Assembly (NCBI GenBank): GCA_965224705.1
Contig: OZ245056.1
Span: 2,528,001-2,592,000 of the forward strand
Origin: Spirochaetaceae bacterium
Lineage (GTDB): Bacteria > Spirochaetota > Spirochaetia > DSM-2461
Reading direction: 5' to 3'
Length of the DNA stretch: 64,000 bases
In this document: positions 15,832 to 63,704 of the stretch, piece by piece
Layout of the letters: every line of letters starts with the position of its first letter
Numbering within the stretch: position 1 is the stretch's first letter
Notes under the pieces: generated by a model
Database searches by the model: none
What the model was told of the DNA's origin: nothing
Seen by the model: only the letters and a program-made list of their open reading frames with translations
Made by a program: the position numbers and the translations under genes

Positions 15832-17337
15832 ATGAGTGTTCGTGTCCGTTATGCACCTTCGCCAACAGGCTTACAGCACATTGGCGGAATTCGTACTGCA
15901 TTGTTCAATTATTTTTTCGCACGGGTCAGTAAGGGGAAATTCATCCTGAGGGTGGAAGATACGGATCAGGAAAGAAGCACTCCGGAAGCCCTCAGCGACC
16001 TGTATTCCAATCTGGAATGGCTGGGTATTGATTTCGATGAGGGCCCCGGAAAAGAAGGGAATTGCGGTCCCTATATACAATCCCTCAGGAAGGAAATCTA
16101 CAGGGAAAAAGCGCAGCATCTGGTACAGATGGGAAAGGCCTATCCCTGTTTTTGTTCCTCTGAGCGCCTGAACCAGATCCGTGAGGAGCAAAAGAATTCA
16201 AAAACTGATATTGGTTATGATCGCAGATGTGAGAGTATTTCTCCGTCAGAAGCTGCCGCCCGCATGGCTTCCGGTGAGCCATATGTTCTCAGATTGAAAG
16301 TTCCCCGGGAGGGTAAAACAGAATTTGCAGACCTTTTGCTTGGCCGTATCAGCCGTAAGAACAAGGATATTAACCCTGATCCTGTTATTCTTAAATCGGA
16401 TGGATTTCCAACCTATCATCTGGCTAATGTCATTGATGATCACATGATGGGCATTACCCATATAATGCGTGCCCAGGAATGGATCCCTTCGGGTCCGCTG
16501 CATGTATTGCTCTACCAGGCATTCAGCTGGAATCTGCCTTTCTACTGCCACCTTCCCATGGTGATGGGAAAAGATGGGCAGAAACTCTCCAAGAGACATG
16601 GAGCAACAGCGGTTTCGGATTTCCGTGCCGCAGGCTACCTGCCCGAAGCCATCATCAATTACATTTCTCTTCTGGGTTGGAGTTATGATGATTCCCGTGA
16701 GTTTTTTACCAGAAACGAGCTTTGTGAATTGTTTTGTATTGAGAAAATCAATAAATCTCCAGCTATTTTCGACTACAGGAAGCTTGAGTGGTTTAATGGT
16801 CAGTATATTCGCAGAAAAGACCCGGAAACTTTAAAAACTGAGCTGAGATCCATATTGGTACAGGATGGAATAATATCCAATCCAATATCAGCTGAGGACA
16901 GGGACATCTTCGAGGGCGCATTCCCCATTGTCCGGGAACGGCTTAAAGTTCTTGGAGATGTATCATCCATGCTGAGATTTCTTTTTGATGACCCCGGAAC
17001 TGGCAATACTGAAGATGCCATACCGAAAAAAATGGATGGTTTGCAGACAGCCGCCGTACTGAGGGCTGGTATTATACTATTGGGCAATGCCCCGGAAGTT
17101 CCCCCTGTTGCCAACCAGACTGCGTGCCGAAAATGGGACGATGACCGGGAGAATGAATTCCGGGCAAAGGCCGATGAATCCGGATGGAAGTTCGGGGTAA
17201 TGATGCAGCCTCTGCGGCTGGCCGTTACGGCCAGCAAGGTCAGTCCCCCCCTGTTTCCGGCAATTCGACTTCTGGGAATTGAGGAATCCCTCCGGCGGGC
17301 AGAACGATTACTGAAGGAACTGGAGGGGACTCTTTAA
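15832..17337 (+). CDS. gltX: Glutamate--tRNA ligase
   Basis: RYAPSPTG, HIGG, LRVEDTD, PTYHLANVIDD, KLSKR; ATG 15832. Confidence 0.97.
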   Translation: MSVRVRYAPSPTGLQHIGGIRTALFNYFFARVSKGKFILRVEDTDQERSTPEALSDLYSNLEWLGIDFDEGPGKEGNCGPYIQSLRKEIYREKAQHLVQMGKAYPCFCSSERLNQIREEQKNSKTDIGYDRRCESISPSEAAARMASGEPYVLRLKVPREGKTEFADLLLGRISRKNKDINPDPVILKSDGFPTYHLANVIDDHMMGITHIMRAQEWIPSGPLHVLLYQAFSWNLPFYCHLPMVMGKDGQKLSKRHGATAVSDFRAAGYLPEAIINYISLLGWSYDDSREFFTRNELCELFCIEKINKSPAIFDYRKLEWFNGQYIRRKDPETLKTELRSILVQDGIISNPISAEDRDIFEGAFPIVRERLKVLGDVSSMLRFLFDDPGTGNTEDAIPKKMDGLQTAAVLRAGIILLGNAPEVPPVANQTACRKWDDDRENEFRAKADESGWKFGVMMQPLRLAVTASKVSPPLFPAIRLLGIEESLRRAERLLKELEGTL

Positions 17338-17608
17338 GAGGAAGAAAAATCCAAACTAAATTCGGCTTTTCTTTCATTTTTGAGGTATTCTGCCACGAAA
17401 ATGCGGATGCATTCAGGCACCCGTGGGGGCTGTGTCAGGCCAAAGGCGAGTTCTGGCACAGCTCCTTTAGGAGGCCTCATCATTCTTCTACGGTTTAAAT
17501 CTCTGGTGATGGATCCGCCGGGTGGTGTGAAAGAATAATGCAGCCACACCATTGTCCTGGCTATTAACCTTGTTTCATATCTGGATACTCTCCAGCCAGG
17601 CTTTGATT

Positions 17609-18346
17609 TCAGTCTGACTCTATCCGTTTCAACCCATCTCGACTCATGACTAAACGGAATCTCTGAGTACTGTGATTCTGATTACCGAAACCTGTCAGGC
17701 AGATTACAAGGCTGAGGCTGTAGACGCGTTTGCTTTTCATTGCCCGTGGTTTTTCGTTCTCTGCAAATACTGATACCATCTTCTCTGGAGCATCCATACT
17801 TCGCAACAGTTCATCCAGTTTCAGGCGTACTATGTCCGTGACCGTATCCAGACGGATATGAAACTTTCTGAGTCTTTTATTGTTGATGACAATTTTTCGT
17901 CGGTAGTGAATCAGATCTTCCTCCGGATGAATATGCTGAAGAGGGCTTGTAATTGTTTGCCTTGCTCGCAAGACATCGCGAGGGGCATTTCTGGCCTTGA
18001 TAAAACGAACTCGACTGTTCACTCTTCCAGCCTTGTTTCCGGTAGCCTGGTCAGTCAGACGAATCCGTTCATCTGCAACAAGGCCAGGTGCGGTATGTAT
18101 CAGTACCTCCCTCAAAGACTCCTTAATGCGGTCTTTGAAAATGTATGAAACGACAATAGCTAAGATCCATGGAAGACTTTGTCCGGGGAGGTACCTATCT
18201 GCAATAATTGACACAGAAACAGCAAAGGTCATGGCAATTGCAGCTGCGATGCTGGCATAGAGTGGTGATCCTGTCTCCGACGCATATATGCACGCCAGAC
18301 TCCGTAATTCGTACAAAATCCGTTTTACATTAACATCATGCGGCAA
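17609..18346 (-). pseudogene. Hypothetical membrane protein, probably 5'-truncated
   Basis: Two TM helices then YIFKDRIKE; no convincing start or SD; 5' end overlaps an opposite-strand fragment. Confidence 0.5.
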
Positions 18347-18820
18347 CAGACTGCTGTCAATTCCTTTCTGAATTCTGGAAAATGGACTGATTTCATACGA
18401 CGGATCAACAAGGTTCGACAGGGATATTGAGGGAACGCCGAATCGAGTCAGGCAGTTTATATCGGAGAAGAAACCGGAAACACCATCAAAATCATGTCAA
18501 AATTCTGGGGCAGCGAGTGGCTTGTGGAACCGCCGGAAGAATCACCTCCCGCGATTTCCCTTAATGAACTCTGTCAGAAGCTGCAGGAGAAATGTACCGA
18601 GGAAGGAGTGGAAAAGGATATAAACATCCATCAAAGCGCGAAAGCTCTCAAAATCCTTTTTCGGCACAGAGGCACAAAAGCCTATAATCTGAAATTTCTG
18701 CTGGAGGATATTTTTGGCAAAAACGCGCTTCACCTGGGATGGAGAATAACCCGCCTGGCCTGTCTGGCTGTTGATAACAATGGGGAAAACCCCATGAATT
18801 ACCTGAATCTCTGTCATTAA
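18308..18820 (+). pseudogene. Interrupted ORF of unknown function upstream of the NLR gene
   Basis: Frame of the 108-aa ORF (18494) continues upstream to 18308 with a single in-frame TGA at 18428-18430. Confidence 0.4.
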
Positions 18821-18944
18821 CATATCGGCGGCGGCCGGACTGCTTCAGGCTCCGCTGCCGCTCCGGCGGTTGAGAAGTGGATGCAGCGGATAATTTCGAG
18901 AATACATATTTTTATGAAAAAATAGAAATAAATATGAATAACCG

Positions 18945-18973
18945 TTGACCTTTCTCTGGGCTCATAGTATTTT
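18945..18973 (+). promoter_or_regulatory. Candidate sigma70 promoter of the NLR-like gene
   Basis: TTGACC-17 bp-TATTTT with an A/T-rich upstream tract; SD AAGGAG before ATG 18995. Confidence 0.5.
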
Positions 18974-18994
18974 GTCTCTGCTAAGGAGAAAAAA

Positions 18995-21900
18995 ATGAAA
19001 TCCATAAGCAACGCCATTGACGAATTTCTTGCCCTGAATGAGCTCGGAAAAACCGATGCCAAAAACCTGAACAAGCTGATCGGGCTGCTGGAAGACGGAA
19101 AAGTGGCAACGGAAAGAGCCGTCCAGGCACTGTATGCCGACGCGAAAAATCCAGATGGCAGTTTCAAGAGCTTCATCATGAGGATCAGGGCGGCCATCAA
19201 GGTTACAGCGGACAATCAGAAAGACAAGCGGTTGAAGGAACGGTTGGAATCCATAAAGATAATCACCCATCAGAAAACCTCTTCCATGCCCGGCTGCATC
19301 AGTATTAAGGCCCACTCCGAACCGACCGGCCATCTGCCAGCGGCCAACCGGCAGTACCCGGATGAAAATTATGTTCAAAGCGAGGCATCCAGTGTGGATG
19401 GCAAGCCGCTCCGCAAGGGGGAATCAAAGCTGTTTCTCAGCTACTCCAATGAGAATGCCCGATTAGCCCACGACCTTAAAGACATGCTGGAACAGCAGAG
19501 TAAAGGCACCGAAAACCCTGTCCGTATTTGGTCCATGCTGGAACTGCTGCCGAACCAGAGTTTCATAGAACAGATCAGGGAGAAGCTGAATGAATGCGAT
19601 TTGGGCCTGGCCTGCCTGTCCCAGGCATTCCTCAATAGTCAATTCATAGCGGAGGAGGAAGTCCCTTTTCTACTGAACCACAATAAGATAATCCTGGTCG
19701 GACTGGATTCCCGTTGGGATGGCCGCTCAAAAACACCCTCAGAATTTTTTGATCTTGTGAAAAAGGGCTTTAACGAAAATATCCCCTACTGGAAAAAGAA
19801 TCTCTCGAAGTTATTAGGAATTCATGTATACCACCTGCGCGATACAGAGTGCGGTGCTTTTTGGGGACAATGTGTAAAGAAAACGCCCCAAGAGCAGTTT
19901 GTCGATGGTTTGATTGGGGATATTCGGAAAGTAATCAAACAGAAAAAAGAACGTGAAGAAAAACAGACCGAAGAATTAAAAAAGAACTGGGAAGTTGGAG
20001 ACCGGCGTTACCTTCCCAGGAACTATGTGGATACTGAAGTAAAAGCATTACTAATTCAAAGCCAAACAGAAGCATCCTCGGAAACGCAAAAACGGCACCA
20101 CGAACAGGATGACAAAGAGCCATCCAAACCAACCAGAGAATTGGTGCCCGACATGTTGAACTGGGCGGCCAACGGAAAGGAACCCGTTTACGCCATACTG
20201 GGCGACTACGGCATGGGCAAAACCTTTTCCTGCCGGATTTTCGCCCAGCGTCTGGATGAAGCGCACAAAAAAACGGCCTCCCTGCCGATTTCACTGTACA
20301 TGGATCTGCGTAAGGTACAGACCTTTGTTAAAGACAAGGGTATAGAACGCCTTCCGCGTCTGGACGAAATGATTGATATGATGCTTAAAAGTCATGGAGC
20401 TGAAGCCGATCCGAAGAGATTTATTGAAGACGCGAGACATGGCCGCGTTCTGCCCATATTCGACGGCCTGGATGAAAAGCTGGTCTACTACACCAGGGAC
20501 ATGCAGTACCAGTTTCTGAACGAACTGATGCGGGTGTTCCCGTTCGAAACAACACGGGACAAATCGAAGATCAAAGTCGTGATTTCCTGCCGGACGCATC
20601 ACTTTGAATCAATTGCCCAACAGTCCGTTTTCCTGCAGGGCCTTTACCGGGATGACAGCATGCGGGGCGACTTCCGGGCCATGGAAATACTGCCCCTGTC
20701 GGATGGAAAGATGCGCCAACTCCTGGAAAAAAGGCTGGGCCGGGATGCCACGTTCCAGGTGTGGGAATACATAGACCGTCAGGAATACCTGGCCGCCCTG
20801 GGCCGCCGTCCCCTTCTGCTCAGCAAACTGCCCGATATGCTCCCGTCCATCCAGTCCATGCAGTCAGAGGGAATTCCCGTCAATGCCGCCGTGTTCTATA
20901 AAGCCCTTATCGATGATGTACTGGCTCGGGATAATCCCAAACATGTCCTTAAAAACCGTCATAAGCACCGCCTTCTGCTGGATTTGGCCCTGTATTTCTG
21001 GGAGAAGGGAGAACAGAGCATGAACATAGACAATTTGAACGACTGGTACCAGGCATGGCTGCGCCGCGACCCGGACATGTTTGCCCAGTATCAGACAGAG
21101 GGCAGTGAACAACTGGAAAAAGACCTGCGCAACTCCACCCTGCTGCTCCGCTTCGGTGAAAAAGAATTTGGTTTTACCCACAGCTCCATGCAGGAATACT
21201 TACTGGCCCGGAAACTGCTTTCAGAATGGGGGCAAAACGGTTATTCCCTGGCCAAACCTGTTTCCCGTTTGACAGAGAAGTTCATTGGCGAAGCCCTCGT
21301 GTTGCTGGAGGACGGCGAACGGCGGAAACTGCGTGAACAGCTTGCTGTTTATGCCGCCAGGCCGGAAAAAACCGCCCACTCACCCCATCAGGATGCCCTG
21401 CTGCTCTGCGTAATCCATTCCGCGGCGGAAGCGGGACGGCCTTTTGAAGCCTTTGATGCCATCCATGTCTTTGGTGTCAATTTCTCCGGTGAACGGATTA
21501 GGGGCCTTCGTGCCCGGAAACTAACCCTGAACCGCTGTGAAATGCCGCTCTGCCGCTGGCAGGAAAGCAATATTGACAACCTGGAGTTGAACGAAACCAA
21601 CATCAACCAATCGGTGTGGGAGGAATGCCGGGTTGAGCAAGCGGCGGGAAATGCCCAGGGGCTGACCTGCGTCAACACAGTGGGGCGGATTGAGGGACTC
21701 TGCAAAAACGGAGGAGGCCGGATATATCCGCTGCCGGAGAAGGCCCCTGTGCCGCCCCCGCCGTACGCGGAGAATAATGTAACATGGGGTCATAACTATG
21801 AAATAAACGCGTTGTCATTCAGCCCCGATGGCCGCCTTCTGGCTTCCGCTTCCTCTGACGACACGGTGAGAATCTGGAGCGCGGAGGGCGAATGCCTGCG

Positions 21901-23719
21901 CGTCCTGGAGGGCCATTCCGATGGGGTTCATAGTGTGGACTTCAGCCCCGATGGCCGCCTTCTGGCTTCCGCTTCCTCTGACAACACGGTGAGAATCTGG
22001 AGCGCGGAGGGCGAATGCCTGCGCGTCCTGGAGGGCCATTCCGATGGGGTTCATAGTGTGGGCTTCAGCCCCGATGGCCGCCTTCTGGCTTCCGCTTCCT
22101 CTGACGACACGGTGAGAATCTGGAGCGCGGAGGGCGAATGCCTGCGCGTCCTGGAGGGCCATTCCGATTGGGTTCATAGTGTGGGCTTCAGCCCCGATGG
22201 CCGCCTTCTGGCTTCCGCTTCCTCTGACGACACGGTGAGAATCTGGAGCGCGGAGGGCGAATGCCTGCGCGTCCTGGAGGGCCATTCCGATTCGGTTTGG
22301 AGTGTGGGCTTCAGCCCCGATGGCCGCCTTCTGGCTTCCGCTTCCTCTGACGACACGGTGAGAATCTGGAGTGCGGAGGGCGAATGCCTGCGCGTCCTGG
22401 AGGGCCATTCCGATTCGATTAATAGTGTGGGCTTCAGCCCCGATGGCCGCCTTCTGGCTTCCGCTTCCTCTGACGACACGGTGAGAATCTGGAGCGCGGA
22501 GGGCGAATGCCTGCGCGTCCTGGAGGGCCATTTCCATTGGGTTCATAGTGTGGGCTTCAGCCCCGATGGCCGCCTTCTGGCTTCCGCTTCCTATGATCAC
22601 ACGGTGAGAATCTGGAGCGCGGAGGGCGAATGCCTGCGCGTCCTGGAGGGCCATTCCGATTGGGTTCATAGTGTGGGCTTCAGCCCCGATGGCCGCCTTC
22701 TGGCTTCCGCTTCCTCTGACAACACGGTGAGAATCTGGAGTGCGGAGGGCGAATGCCTGCACGTCCTGGAGGGCCATTTCCTTTCGGTTAATAGTGTGGG
22801 CTACAGCCCCGATGGCCGCCTTCTGGCTTCCGCTTCCTATGATCACACGGTGAGAATCTGGAGCGCGGAGGGCGAATGCCTGCGCGTCCTGGAGGGCCAT
22901 TCCGGTGGGGTTTGGAGTGTGGGCTTCAGCCCCGATGGCCGCCGTCTGGCTTCCGCTTCTTCTGTCAACATGGTGAGAATCTGGAGCGCGGAGGGCGAAT
23001 GCCTGCGCGTCCTGGAGGGCCATTCCGATGGGGTTCGGAGTGTGGGCTTCAGCCCCGATGGCCGCCTTCTGGCTTCCGCTTCCTATGACCACACGGTGAG
23101 AATCTGGAGCGCGGAGGGCGAATGCCTGCGCGTCCTGGAGGGCCATTCCGATTCGGTTATGAGTGTGGGCTTCAGCCCCGATGGCCGCCGTCTGGCTTCC
23201 GCTTCCTTTGATAAAACGGTGAGAATCTGGAGCGCGGAGGGCGAATGCCTGCGCGTCCTGGAGGGCCATTCCGGTGGGGTTATGAGTGTGGGCTTCAGCC
23301 CCGATGGCCGCCTTCTGGCTTCCGCTTCCGATGACAACACGGTGAGAATCTGGAGCGCGGAGGGCGAATGCCTGCGCGTCCTGGAGGGCCATTCCGATTC
23401 GGTTATGTGTGTGGGCTTCAGCCCCGATGGCCGCCTTCTGGCTTCCGGATCCCATGACGGAACGCATATTATCTGGTCCGTAGACCAGGGCCTTCCGCTC
23501 CGTATTATGAGCGCGCAAATAGACGGGCAGTGGTGGTCGGTGGAAATAGACGAAAACCGCCGTTACACCCGGATGCTGGGCACCGAACTGGCCTGGCAGC
23601 GGGTGTGGCTGCGGCATAAGGACGGTGTGGCTTCCCTGGATGCCTTTGACGGGTTTCGATTGGTGCCGTCACGACACTGCCTGAAAAATGATGCCAAAAC
23701 ACATCTGAATCGACCATGA
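18995..23719 (+). CDS. NLR-like STAND protein: TIR - NACHT - pentapeptide-like - 14 WD40 repeats
   Basis: TIR LFLSYS...LSQAFLNSQFIAEEEV; Walker A GDYGMGKT; Walker B IFDGLDE; ISCRTHHF; FTHSSMQEYLLA; GH...FSPDG...IW repeats. Confidence 0.93.
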   Translation: MKSISNAIDEFLALNELGKTDAKNLNKLIGLLEDGKVATERAVQALYADAKNPDGSFKSFIMRIRAAIKVTADNQKDKRLKERLESIKIITHQKTSSMPGCISIKAHSEPTGHLPAANRQYPDENYVQSEASSVDGKPLRKGESKLFLSYSNENARLAHDLKDMLEQQSKGTENPVRIWSMLELLPNQSFIEQIREKLNECDLGLACLSQAFLNSQFIAEEEVPFLLNHNKIILVGLDSRWDGRSKTPSEFFDLVKKGFNENIPYWKKNLSKLLGIHVYHLRDTECGAFWGQCVKKTPQEQFVDGLIGDIRKVIKQKKEREEKQTEELKKNWEVGDRRYLPRNYVDTEVKALLIQSQTEASSETQKRHHEQDDKEPSKPTRELVPDMLNWAANGKEPVYAILGDYGMGKTFSCRIFAQRLDEAHKKTASLPISLYMDLRKVQTFVKDKGIERLPRLDEMIDMMLKSHGAEADPKRFIEDARHGRVLPIFDGLDEKLVYYTRDMQYQFLNELMRVFPFETTRDKSKIKVVISCRTHHFESIAQQSVFLQGLYRDDSMRGDFRAMEILPLSDGKMRQLLEKRLGRDATFQVWEYIDRQEYLAALGRRPLLLSKLPDMLPSIQSMQSEGIPVNAAVFYKALIDDVLARDNPKHVLKNRHKHRLLLDLALYFWEKGEQSMNIDNLNDWYQAWLRRDPDMFAQYQTEGSEQLEKDLRNSTLLLRFGEKEFGFTHSSMQEYLLARKLLSEWGQNGYSLAKPVSRLTEKFIGEALVLLEDGERRKLREQLAVYAARPEKTAHSPHQDALLLCVIHSAAEAGRPFEAFDAIHVFGVNFSGERIRGLRARKLTLNRCEMPLCRWQESNIDNLELNETNINQSVWEECRVEQAAGNAQGLTCVNTVGRIEGLCKNGGGRIYPLPEKAPVPPPPYAENNVTWGHNYEINALSFSPDGRLLASASSDDTVRIWSAEGECLRVLEGHSDGVHSVDFSPDGRLLASASSDNTVRIWSAEGECLRVLEGHSDGVHSVGFSPDGRLLASASSDDTVRIWSAEGECLRVLEGHSDWVHSVGFSPDGRLLASASSDDTVRIWSAEGECLRVLEGHSDSVWSVGFSPDGRLLASASSDDTVRIWSAEGECLRVLEGHSDSINSVGFSPDGRLLASASSDDTVRIWSAEGECLRVLEGHFHWVHSVGFSPDGRLLASASYDHTVRIWSAEGECLRVLEGHSDWVHSVGFSPDGRLLASASSDNTVRIWSAEGECLHVLEGHFLSVNSVGYSPDGRLLASASYDHTVRIWSAEGECLRVLEGHSGGVWSVGFSPDGRRLASASSVNMVRIWSAEGECLRVLEGHSDGVRSVGFSPDGRLLASASYDHTVRIWSAEGECLRVLEGHSDSVMSVGFSPDGRRLASASFDKTVRIWSAEGECLRVLEGHSGGVMSVGFSPDGRLLASASDDNTVRIWSAEGECLRVLEGHSDSVMCVGFSPDGRLLASGSHDGTHIIWSVDQGLPLRIMSAQIDGQWWSVEIDENRRYTRMLGTELAWQRVWLRHKDGVASLDAFDGFRLVPSRHCLKNDAKTHLNRP
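21788..23490 (+). repeat. 14 tandem 123-bp WD40-encoding repeats
   Basis: GH codons at 21788, 21911 ... 23387 at exact 123-bp spacing; internal units near-identical in DNA. Confidence 0.97.
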
Positions 23720-23858
23720 TTCCTAATCGCAGAATGAGATGCGATTGCCCCGAGGGAATAAAACAAGATACCTGTCTTTTCAAATAAAATCATCCTGCTT
23801 GCCCAAGCTGACTGAAAAATGCTACGTTAGTTCTCATTCTATAAGTAAGGATTAACCT

Positions 23859-25265
23859 GTGCCCAAAGAGAAACAAGCGAACAACATCGGTAATGAACAT
23901 GGTGCATCAATGGAAAAGATGGTCTCTCTCTGCAAAAGAAGAGGATTCGTCTATCCTTCCAGCGAGATCTATGGAGGTTTATCTGCCACCTGGGACTATG
24001 GCCCATTGGGCGTTGAACTGAAGAAAAACATTCAGGAAGCCTGGTGGAAGGAGATGGTGCAGAGGCATACCAATATTGTTGGACTTGATGCTGCCATCAT
24101 GATGCATCCACGAACCTGGGAGGCCTCAGGCCATGTTGAGAATTTTTCCGACCCCCTGGTGGATTGCAAGAAGTGTAAAACCCGATTCCGGGCTGATCAT
24201 CTGGAAGATATTCGCAAAGAACAGGAAATCAGCCATGATAACTGCCCTGAATGCGGAGGGGAGCTGACCGAACCCCGGCAGTTCAATCTTATGTTTACCA
24301 CCCACATGGGACCAGTCGCAGACACAGGCTCCCTGATTTACCTTCGGCCTGAAACAGCCCAGGGTATCTTTGTCAATTTTAAAAATGTTGTGGATACCAC
24401 AAGGGTGCAGATTCCTTTCGGCATCGCCCAGGTTGGAAAGGCGTTCCGGAATGAAATAACCACTAAGAACTTCATTTTTCGCACCTGTGAATTTGAGCAA
24501 ATGGAAATGCAGTACTTCGTGAAACCGGGTACTGAGGACGATTTTTTTGAGGAATGGAAGGCCAAACGTCTATCCTGGTATGTTGACCGCCTGGGTATTA
24601 TGGCAGACCGGCTTCGATATTCAGAGCATGGCCCGGATGAACTGGCCCACTATGCAAAGGTGGCCTTTGATATTCAGTACAAATACCCGTTTGGATGGCA
24701 GGAGCTGGAAGGCATTCATTCACGGACGGACTATGATTTAAGACGGCATGGCGAGTTCTGCGGGAAGGAAATCAACTATCTGGATCCGGTCGATAACAGC
24801 CGCTACATTCCCTATGTTATTGAGACTTCTTCCGGCCTTACCAGGAGCGTATTGGTGACTTTGATGGATGCCTACCATGAGGAAAATATTGGGGAACAAA
24901 ACGGGAAGCCTGATATCCGCACCGTACTGCATCTCCACCCCGACATTGCCCCGGTGAGAGTGGCTGTTTTTCCCCTGGTTAAGAAGGATGGACTGGCTGA
25001 GCTTGCCCGGGATCTGGAATTGGAGCTCCGGGAGGACTATTCCACTTTCTACGATCAAGGCGGAGCAATCGGACGCCGTTATCGCCGCATGGATGAAATT
25101 GGAACTCCCTTCTGTGTGACCATTGACCATGAAACAAAAGAGAATAAAACAGTAACTCTCCGGTTTCGGGATTCCATGGAACAGGTGAGAGTTCCTCTTG
25201 ATGGTGTCAGTCAGGTTATCCGCAGGGAAAGCAGGGAATACGTTCGGAAAACAACTTCGGTTTGA
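23859..25265 (+). CDS. glyQS: Glycine--tRNA ligase, alpha2 type
   Basis: KRRGF, WDYGPLG, YLRPETAQGIF, FRNEI, EFEQME, IGRRYRRMDEIGTP. Confidence 0.97.
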   Translation: MPKEKQANNIGNEHGASMEKMVSLCKRRGFVYPSSEIYGGLSATWDYGPLGVELKKNIQEAWWKEMVQRHTNIVGLDAAIMMHPRTWEASGHVENFSDPLVDCKKCKTRFRADHLEDIRKEQEISHDNCPECGGELTEPRQFNLMFTTHMGPVADTGSLIYLRPETAQGIFVNFKNVVDTTRVQIPFGIAQVGKAFRNEITTKNFIFRTCEFEQMEMQYFVKPGTEDDFFEEWKAKRLSWYVDRLGIMADRLRYSEHGPDELAHYAKVAFDIQYKYPFGWQELEGIHSRTDYDLRRHGEFCGKEINYLDPVDNSRYIPYVIETSSGLTRSVLVTLMDAYHEENIGEQNGKPDIRTVLHLHPDIAPVRVAVFPLVKKDGLAELARDLELELREDYSTFYDQGGAIGRRYRRMDEIGTPFCVTIDHETKENKTVTLRFRDSMEQVRVPLDGVSQVIRRESREYVRKTTSV

Positions 25266-62009: not shown

Positions 62010-63704
62010 CTAATCCTTCGAGTATTCCAGATATTTCATTGGGTCAGACTGGAAAGCTACAATTACCGCATTTTCATTTGTTTTGTTTGAAGCATGTTTT
62101 ACTTCAACCAATAATTCAGCAGCCTTGATATTGCGGTTGTTTTTCGAAGTAATGCCTATGCGGAAATTCCTCTCTCCAACGTTTCTTTCGAGAGAACTGA
62201 GTATTGATTTTGATGTCAGTAATGCTGAATCAAGATTTTTATTGCTTTCAATAACGACGACCTGATTATCATCCAATTGGAATGTCTTCTGATTCGGAAG
62301 AAAAGCTTCCTTTATTGAATCAAAGCTGTCATCGCTGGATCGTATGAGGAACAGGGCAAGATCTTCCCCCCTGGATTCAGCTTCGGACAGTTCTGTTTCT
62401 AATTGTTCCAGTACATCTCGTTCCTCATTTGAAATGCTGTTATCTTCAGGATGAATTTCCACCGGCTCATCAAAGCTCACCGGCTCATCAAAGCTCATCG
62501 GATCATCAAGGCCTGTCGGCTCATCAAAACTCACCGGATCATCAAGGCCTGCGGGCTCATCAAAACTTACCGGGTCATCAAGGCCTGTCGGCTCATCAAA
62601 ACTCACCGGATCATCAAGGCCTGTCGGCTCATCAAAACTCACCGGATTATCAAGGCCGACCGGCTCATCAAAGCTCACCGGCTCATCAAAACTCACCGGA
62701 TCATCAAGGCCTGTCGGCTCATCAAAGCTCACCGGATCATCAAGGCCTGCAGGATCGTCAAAGCTCACCGGATCATCAAGGCCTGTCGGCTCATCAAAGC
62801 CTGCGGGATCATCAAAGCTCACCGGCTCATTAAAGCTCACCGGGTCATCAAGGTTTGCAGGATCATCAAAGCTCATCGGGTCATCAAGGTTTGCAGGATC
62901 ATCAAAACTCACCGGATCATCAAGGTTTGCAGGCTCATCAAAGCTCATCGGATCATCAAGGTTTGTGGGCTCATCAAAGCTCACCGGATCATCAAGGCCG
63001 AGCGGCGCATCAAAGCTTACCGGATCATCGAGGTCTGCAGAATCATTAAAGCTCACCGGATCATCAAAGCTTACCGGATCATCAAGATCTGCAGGATCAT
63101 CAATGCTTACAGGATCGTCAAAGTCGTCGTTCATTGAAATACTGCTGTCATCAATTGTGTCATTGACTCTCCTCTGCTTCGGACGAAGAAGGAGCAGTGC
63201 GAGTGTTATAATGAAAATCACCCCGGCCGGTATGATTATGTACAATAGAAATTTTCGTATGTCTTCATAGGTCAGGCTGACAGAAACATAGTAAGCACGC
63301 AGGCCAACCATCTCTTTAATATTCATTGGATGATGAACAACATGGTAATGCCATCTTGAAAAACCATCAAACTTGTTGGAATCGGCAATGGCACTGGATT
63401 TAAATTCATCCATAACTGGTTGAATAACACTGAACCGCAGTCCATCATCCAGGGAGTATACTTGAACTGCTACAAGCAATGGGTTATTTTTTATGAGATT
63501 TCTTGCGTATTCAACTTCCGCCTCAATATCCCGTCGTTCGATGAGTAATTCTGACAGGTATTGGGTATACCGGGTTGAATCCTCAGTCATTTTCATCATT
63601 CTTGTATTTCTTAAGTTGTAGACTTCCCGGGAAATGTAAGCGATGATGCAAAAAAGTAAAATCAGAGCCAGTATGGTGTATACTGTTGAGAATGATTTCT
63701 TCAT
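62010..63704 (-). CDS. Two-TM membrane protein with acidic hexapeptide repeats and a degenerate GGDEF-like C-terminus
   Basis: ATG 63704 (MKKSF); two hydrophobic helices; LETELSEAESRGEDLALFLI...IGIT..N.R...AELL with no GGDEF motif. Confidence 0.82.
   Translation of the reverse strand: MKKSFSTVYTILALILLFCIIAYISREVYNLRNTRMMKMTEDSTRYTQYLSELLIERRDIEAEVEYARNLIKNNPLLVAVQVYSLDDGLRFSVIQPVMDEFKSSAIADSNKFDGFSRWHYHVVHHPMNIKEMVGLRAYYVSVSLTYEDIRKFLLYIIIPAGVIFIITLALLLLRPKQRRVNDTIDDSSISMNDDFDDPVSIDDPADLDDPVSFDDPVSFNDSADLDDPVSFDAPLGLDDPVSFDEPTNLDDPMSFDEPANLDDPVSFDDPANLDDPMSFDDPANLDDPVSFNEPVSFDDPAGFDEPTGLDDPVSFDDPAGLDDPVSFDEPTGLDDPVSFDEPVSFDEPVGLDNPVSFDEPTGLDDPVSFDEPTGLDDPVSFDEPAGLDDPVSFDEPTGLDDPMSFDEPVSFDEPVEIHPEDNSISNEERDVLEQLETELSEAESRGEDLALFLIRSSDDSFDSIKEAFLPNQKTFQLDDNQVVVIESNKNLDSALLTSKSILSSLERNVGERNFRIGITSKNNRNIKAAELLVEVKHASNKTNENAVIVAFQSDPMKYLEYSKD
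62454..63119 (-). repeat. 37 x 18-bp coding tandem repeat, D[DE]Pxx[FL]
   Basis: DDPVSF units mostly alternating with DEPTGL/DDPANL/DDPAGL. Confidence 0.95.

Follow-up and report, generated by a model that had tools for sequence, protein, structure and literature searches.

A candidate NLR-type receptor gene joining a TIR domain, a NACHT switch, and near-identical WD40 repeats in a Spirochaetaceae genome

The HNWD/NWD proteins of Podospora anserina (HET-E, HET-D, and HET-R) join a TIR-related effector to a NACHT domain and to about 14 WD40 blades of high internal repeat identity, and their selected codons fall in two pairs (PMC1805685, PMC12222747). In HET-E these are codons 7, 9, 25, and 27, which flank conserved residues on the top of the propeller (PMC1805685). 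Bacterial NOD-like receptors (NLRs) with highly conserved WD40 repeats have near-identical repeats with variable hotspots (PMC5587647, 10.1101/2020.01.06.895854, PMC13449251), and the N-terminal domains of such proteins include NNH6, TIR, and PNP-UDP (PMC13449251, Fig. 8 legend). The bNACHT proteins share a single-gene effector-NACHT-sensor layout, and the preprint on them lists TIR, PNPase, winged helix-turn-helix, NNH, pentapeptide, and beta-propeller domains (10.1101/2022.07.19.500537). Avs and other anti-phage receptors of the signal transduction ATPases with numerous domains (STAND) class combine a STAND switch with an enzymatic N-terminal effector, with WD40 sensors among the defense clades (PMC13581612). 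We report here a gene of this general design from a Spirochaetaceae bacterium whose genome (G000) is a single 3.0-Mb contig (C1); the gene lies between gltX and glyQS in the window, by which we mean the whole 64,000-nucleotide stretch that was analyzed (contig OZ245056.1, positions 2,528,001 to 2,592,000).

The open reading frame (ORF) runs from 18995 to 23719 on the forward strand, unbroken over 4.7 kb, and encodes 1574 residues. A preliminary description of this DNA had the start right but ended the gene at 21787; the frame stays open across 14 WD40 repeats, so that what had been taken for a stand-alone effector/switch module was the first 60% of a complete protein with effector, switch, and sensor, a receptor bearing its own sensor. 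Pfam and a repeat search gave the domain order NNH6 (winged helix)-TIR-NACHT-pentapeptide-like-14×WD40, with Pfam matches to NNH6 at residues 14 to 70, to TIR_2 at residues 147 to 255, to NACHT from residue 399, and weakly to a pentapeptide family at residues 844 to 883. This is the effector-NTPase-repeat sensor order expected of NACHT-type STAND proteins, or bacterial NLRs. The parts of the gene are as follows.

18900..18988, + strand: AT-rich tract, sigma70-like promoter, and Shine-Dalgarno sequence (scan at chance level; layout shared with the paralog and the G009 copy)
18995..23719, + strand: NLR-type protein, full ORF, 1574 residues (Pfam and repeats)
18995..19318, + strand: NNH6 domain, predicted winged helix-turn-helix (recognition helix, residues 53 to 73; wing, residues 88 to 105)
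19415..19957, + strand: TIR domain (presumed catalytic Glu222 at 19658-19660)
20147..21229, + strand: NACHT module (Walker A, 20201-20224; Walker B, 20456-20476; SCR, RPLL, and FTHSSMQEY motifs)
21230..21790, + strand: helical linker and degenerate pentapeptide-like segment (Pfam match at 21524-21643, residues 844 to 883, below the cut-off)
21791..23494, + strand: 14 WD40 repeats of 41 residues (123 bp) each (repeat search and WD40 matches)
23495..23719, + strand: C-terminal tail, kept in near relatives, without a family match

The diversifying sensor array, which the preliminary description did not reach, is the main feature of the gene. Tandem Repeats Finder reported a 123-bp unit in 13.3 copies with 94% matches between 21818 and 23447. 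The 12 inner repeats are 87 to 99% identical in DNA (mean, 93.7%), within the 80 to 100% that marks NLRs of high internal conservation. Compared with the repeats of a paralog elsewhere in the genome they are 75% identical, with no positional orthology (0.752 versus 0.751); the high identity inside the array, together with the lack of a positional match, indicates that each array has been homogenized separately. Of the 22 variable bases, 19 change an amino acid and 3 are silent, and 11 fall in just five codons, at +2, +3, +5, +21, and +23 after the GH histidine. A codon-model test on the 12 repeats, run with our own code on a fixed FastTree tree, favored a positively selected class at the same five sites (likelihood ratio test [LRT], 50.6; omega about 24), and the paralog (LRT, 22.7) and the copy in the nearest genome, G009 (LRT, 34.4), agreed, with site lists that are partly different. 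Incompatibility at 11 of 28 site pairs points to exchange between repeats. A measure that needs no tree gave the same five positions: across 20 family arrays from several phyla, each with at least 6 usable repeats and at least 65% identity, their mean heterozygosity is 0.52 to 0.69, against ≤0.27 at every other position.

Diversifying selection thus falls on codon pairs like those of the HET-E top face, positions being matched to PMC1805685 by spacing rather than by a three-dimensional model: +3/+5 and +21/+23 have the same 2-16-2 spacing as 7/9 and 25/27. The repeats probably form two 7-bladed propellers with variable top-face residues, and the count of 14 fits the two modeled for HET-E (PMC12222747); the number of repeats differs among relatives, one copy in the genome G001 having 16. 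Unlike the HNWD proteins, the protein is bacterial, its repeats are 41 rather than 42 residues long, all 14 blades are recognizable repeats, a winged helix and a pentapeptide-like segment are added, and TIR_2 takes the place of HET. Nor do the two paralogs appear to have swapped whole repeats, the best cross-array identity being 81%. Membership in the fungal family proper is ruled out, as Pfam gives TIR_2 and NNH6 and no HET; by analogy, we regard the protein as HET-E-like in design and not as a family member.

Comparison with the bacterial systems gives a similar mixture. The bNACHT proteins given as tested in the Fig. S3 legend carry leucine-rich repeat (LRR), HEAT, restriction endonuclease (REase), TIR, transmembrane (TM), NNH1, or NCH1 domains and no propeller, and the preprint text does not mention NNH6 (10.1101/2022.07.19.500537). 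The papers on conserved-WD40 bacterial NLRs stress multicellular lineages and, in the parts consulted, propose diversification as a possibility without measuring it and give no ligand (PMC5587647, 10.1101/2020.01.06.895854, PMC13449251), whereas selection is measured here, in a 3.0-Mb genome. Most sensors in the account of Avs/STAND receptors are tetratricopeptide repeat (TPR)-like, unlike ours, and we met no tested WD40 NACHT in the sections consulted (PMC13581612).

The switch and the effector have intact motifs. Walker A (GDYGMGKT, residues 403 to 410) and Walker B (IFDGLDE, residues 488 to 494) are intact, as the preliminary description held, and with further NACHT motifs at residues 531 to 537, 604 to 609, and 727 to 735 they are largely invariant in eight aligned relatives. 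The Pfam NACHT score of 20.9 bits (E = 3.4e-4) falls under the cut-off of 26.7, which two relatives exceed. Judged from its P-loop NTPase motifs and domain order, the protein qualifies as a NACHT-type STAND protein, or bacterial NLR. The TIR-like domain seen earlier passes the Pfam TIR_2 cut-off (E = 3.4e-9) and is confirmed as a TIR fold; among PDB sequences it matches BtTir, TcpB/BtpA, and AbTir best. Of the three consecutive glutamates (EEE) at the place proposed for the catalytic one, only E222, on helix C, is conserved; it is present in 52 of 52 sequences and, allowing for a gap of one residue, lines up with the Glu of BtTir/AbTir. These matches support a TIR domain with an intact, putatively catalytic Glu. 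The pentapeptide-like segment is a weak stretch (residues 844 to 883; E = 0.0007 to 0.005) that was rightly noticed but lies under the Pfam cut-off, which relatives exceed.

The first ~135 residues, for which no match had been recognized, belong to Pfam NNH6 (PF22737; residues 1 to 140), with 28.2 bits against a cut-off of 27; a 931-residue piece used as query scored 24.3 bits, and relatives score 31 to 113. A model with a predicted local distance difference test (pLDDT) value of 91 has the helix-strand-helix-helix-strand-strand topology of a winged helix, and winged helices dominate both structural searches with it. By our own count, DNA-binding domains of the OmpR/PhoB, SARP, or ToxR type make up 13 of the 14 top and 24 of the 50 top matches, AfsR included. 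AfsR is laid out as a BTAD followed by an NB-ARC-TPR module; unlike in such AfsR/SARP-type STAND regulators, TIR stands here in place of BTAD and NACHT-WD40 in place of NB-ARC-TPR. Among 96 NNH6 domains, positions 58, 61, and 63 of the recognition helix are Lys or Arg in 59 to 78% and positions 93, 94, and 100 of the wing in 65 to 85%. A winged-helix reading turns NNH6, a Pfam domain so far unexplained, into a DNA-binding hypothesis.

By a family profile search, 3 of 38 genomes in the spirochete family (3 of 23 near-complete ones) carry the gene, with five copies in total; all three carriers are single-contig genomes, so copies in fragmented genomes may escape detection. The paralog, 67% identical, occupies C1:551127-555878, between cas9-cas1-cas2-cas4 and an SNF2/DUF4391 locus; the cas9 product (1609 residues, Csx12/Cas9 lobe) and cas1, cas2, and cas4 form a type II-B-like set 1.3 kb from it. 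One G001 copy adjoins GmrSD genes. In the NACHT tree the window gene, the paralog, P0002, and L017 (Spirochaetaceae) form one clade (100/99), the sister group (92/95) includes Bathymodiolus symbiont proteins, and cable bacteria, Desulfobacteraceae, and Arcobacter are nearby. A single grouping of all spirochete copies was rejected by the approximately unbiased test (p-AU, 5.7e-9), with the group named after a quick tree had been viewed and with long branches involved. Relatives are encoded by at least 189 of the 600 pattern matches listed, across many phyla. Among 58 loci analyzed, 47 have the N-terminal NNH6 domain and 44 have TIR, and of seven TIR-less members with a long N terminus six have a phosphorylase in the TIR slot. 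Short, similar linker motifs (R-x-Y...Y-V) lie ahead of TIR (19346-19375) and NACHT (20003-20029); the first is duplicated in P0002, and P0012 has no TIR between the two, which suggests a possible route by which the effector slot is gained or lost. In two Arcobacter members (L022 and L023; L022 was scanned) the propeller matches Reg_prop-type repeats and not ordinary WD40, a swap of sensor on the same chassis. Runs X1 to X4 contain many short contigs, some at high depth, that are 85 to 90% like the NACHT region (window 20120-21590), and thus more family members occur in the same samples.

The position between gltX and glyQS was correctly recognized in the preliminary description, with two gene remnants, which meet at about 18485, now found to separate gltX from the NLR gene. 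DNA likeness to G009 ends at 17341 and restarts at 23785. The features of the insert, with the cas set near the paralog, are the following.

17342..23784, no strand: variable insert, 6.4 kb, between gltX (15832-17337) and glyQS (23859-25265)
17609..18484, - strand: remnant of an uncharacterized gene of ~500 residues (surviving parts, residues ~63-133 and ~289-500; truncated at about 18485)
18470..18820, + strand: about 113 codons from the 3' end of a radical-SAM-type gene of ~840 residues (label from our reading of a relative's sequence)
L001:157-6789 (G000 C1 about 543150-549800): type II-B-like cas set

The radical-SAM-type fragment is the only trace of such a gene found in the genome and probably arrived together with the NLR gene. 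In 9 of 11 same-genus genomes that have gltX and glyQS on one contig, the spacing between them stays within 160 bp; the exceptions are G009, whose gap holds an FGE-sulfatase gene, and G007, with 7.9 kb of other genes. The NLR gene is absent from this gap in every relative tested. A 9.2-kb contig from a run labeled mollusc metagenome matches the window at 98 to 99% identity across gltX and the greater part of the first remnant, falling to 92% in the last 238 bases; it carries 417 extra bases inside that remnant and continues with other sequence after 18486. It is a close strain without the NLR block at the same site. The horizontal acquisition proposed earlier is well supported by the patchy presence, the absence from the gap in relatives, and the conflict between the NACHT tree and host taxonomy, which do not support a donor or a direction. 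GC content is raised, as also noted before: 55.7% in the gene and 62% in the repeats, against 47.5 ± 4.3% in 1757 long ORFs of the same genome, with the non-repeat part only mildly high (51.6%, 85th percentile). The FGE-sulfatase-domain gene of G009 is in two pieces (L010:4227-5393) at the very site of the NLR insert, FGE being another variable-sensor fold.

We lean, with modest confidence, toward a single-gene cytoplasmic receptor of an NNH6-[TIR or phosphorylase]-NACHT-WD40 family. The variable top face of the propeller would recognize a protein that is foreign or altered by infection, most probably one encoded by a phage or another mobile element; recognition would drive nucleotide exchange and oligomerization of NACHT; the TIR domains so clustered would cleave NAD+ via Glu222, arresting or killing the infected cell, and exchange between repeats plus selection would keep renewing specificity. 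The winged helix would be an accessory adaptor or autoregulator. Observed directly are the anatomy, the intact switch and TIR motifs, the homogenization of repeats within the gene, the change at five positions, and the recent gain at a variable site; each step beyond the anatomy draws on NLR and TIR biology, and by the same analogy the outcome may be abortive infection, as proposed earlier. Several observations weigh against it. Three shorter members (L018, L019, and L068) have no recognizable enzyme in the slot, the winged helix is as constant as TIR, and the genes around the window's copy are housekeeping genes and remnants. The protein as a whole has no PADLOC model, and PADLOC matched (E ≤ 1e-10) only 11 of 144 nearest neighbors at 51 loci, mostly through generic domains and with no control set, so that linkage to defense islands across the family is weak. 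Exchange between repeats can inflate our selection test.

It is unlikely that the sensor serves symbiosis or kin discrimination, reading molecules of a host animal or of neighboring cells and not phage proteins. The Bathymodiolus gill symbiont proteins among the nearest non-spirochete relatives and the mollusc-metagenome contig would fit such a role, as would the fungal analog HET-E, which reads a conspecific protein (PMC12222747), but other close relatives are from cable bacteria and Arcobacter, the family extends to free-living Myxococcota, Verrucomicrobiota, Planctomycetota, Actinomycetota, and Chlorobiota, and the protein begins directly with the winged helix, with no signal peptide seen by eye (no predictor was run). 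A ligand-gated transcription regulator like AfsR or MalT, with the DNA-binding winged helix as main output and TIR or phosphorylase as an optional second, seems to us quite unlikely, even with the structural matches of NNH6, its conserved basic residues, and its retention where the slot has no enzyme. BtTir, TcpB/BtpA, and AbTir are described as 2'cADPR producers, and an aromatic residue (F217 here; Tyr in 37 of 52) is retained near the W204 position, where cyclizing enzymes have W, Y, or F; still, it is improbable that the TIR, rather than draining NAD+ itself, produces cyclic ADP-ribose (cADPR) as a signal to a separate effector with its gene at another locus, since only one ThsB-like match occurs among the 144 neighbors and no effector gene adjoins any of the five spirochete copies, the genome not having been searched for effectors in trans. 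New propellers are often amplified from a single blade (PMC9218822) and the neighboring genes of the insert are broken, but that the repeats owe their near-identity to recent amplification alone, in a decaying cargo gene with no sensing role, is very improbable: the ORF is intact over 4.7 kb, the motifs and promoter layout are conserved, silent changes account for only 3 of the 22 variable bases, and the variation of the same five positions in 20 arrays from several phyla largely refutes it. A bolder version of the receptor that we favor, which we offer tentatively and think rather unlikely, has NNH6 as a working DNA-binding domain, an always-kept transcriptional or DNA-gated arm beside a swappable TIR/phosphorylase killing arm on a self-diversifying, positively selected WD40 receptor, in a family that crosses phyla; such an NLR would serve as a transcription factor and an executioner at once and would circulate among bacteria that are marine or associated with animals.

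Much of the design is already published, including bacterial NLRs with conserved WD40 repeats and hotspots, TIR, winged helix-turn-helix, pentapeptide, and propeller domains on bacterial NACHTs, and WD40 on defense STANDs, and the gene is otherwise another good example of it. To this we add a selection signal measured over one bacterial family, a reading of NNH6 as a winged helix, and evidence that the gene was gained recently, at the level of strains. As a compact test case, the family would combine a single-gene design, a five-residue code that can be read from each repeat, a standard NADase assay as read-out, and naturally occurring variants with TIR, with phosphorylase, or with no enzyme.

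Upstream of the gene a Shine-Dalgarno sequence (AAGGAG, 18983-18988) follows promoter elements TTGACC at 18945 and TATTTT ending at 18973. The preliminary description credited the gene with its own promoter and ribosome-binding site; the latter is present, and the promoter match by itself is at chance (5 found, 4.9 expected) but its layout recurs, since an AT-rich tract, TTGAC, and a -10-like hexamer 17 to 18 nt downstream precede all three aligned spirochete copies (gene, paralog, and G009 copy).

We considered the array as a target of a diversity-generating retroelement and rejected this: no template-like copy lies outside the two arrays, third positions of +5 vary T/G, and the one outside match is a short 32-bp stretch in another WD40 gene. 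Elsewhere in the genome (C1 about 525000-531100; L003:2921-9111) three features stand side by side, namely a gene with an FGE-sulfatase domain, a reverse-transcriptase frame that is short (C1:527025-527480), and a 920-residue WD40 protein, possibly the remnant of a diversity-generating-type retroelement. Three near-equal 426-residue reverse-transcriptase frames, one with a stop, at C1 about 332000, 1072000, and 1653000 are probably copies of one mobile element. Near the end of the window, an 18-bp tandem repeat in about 37 copies occupies 62460-63123.
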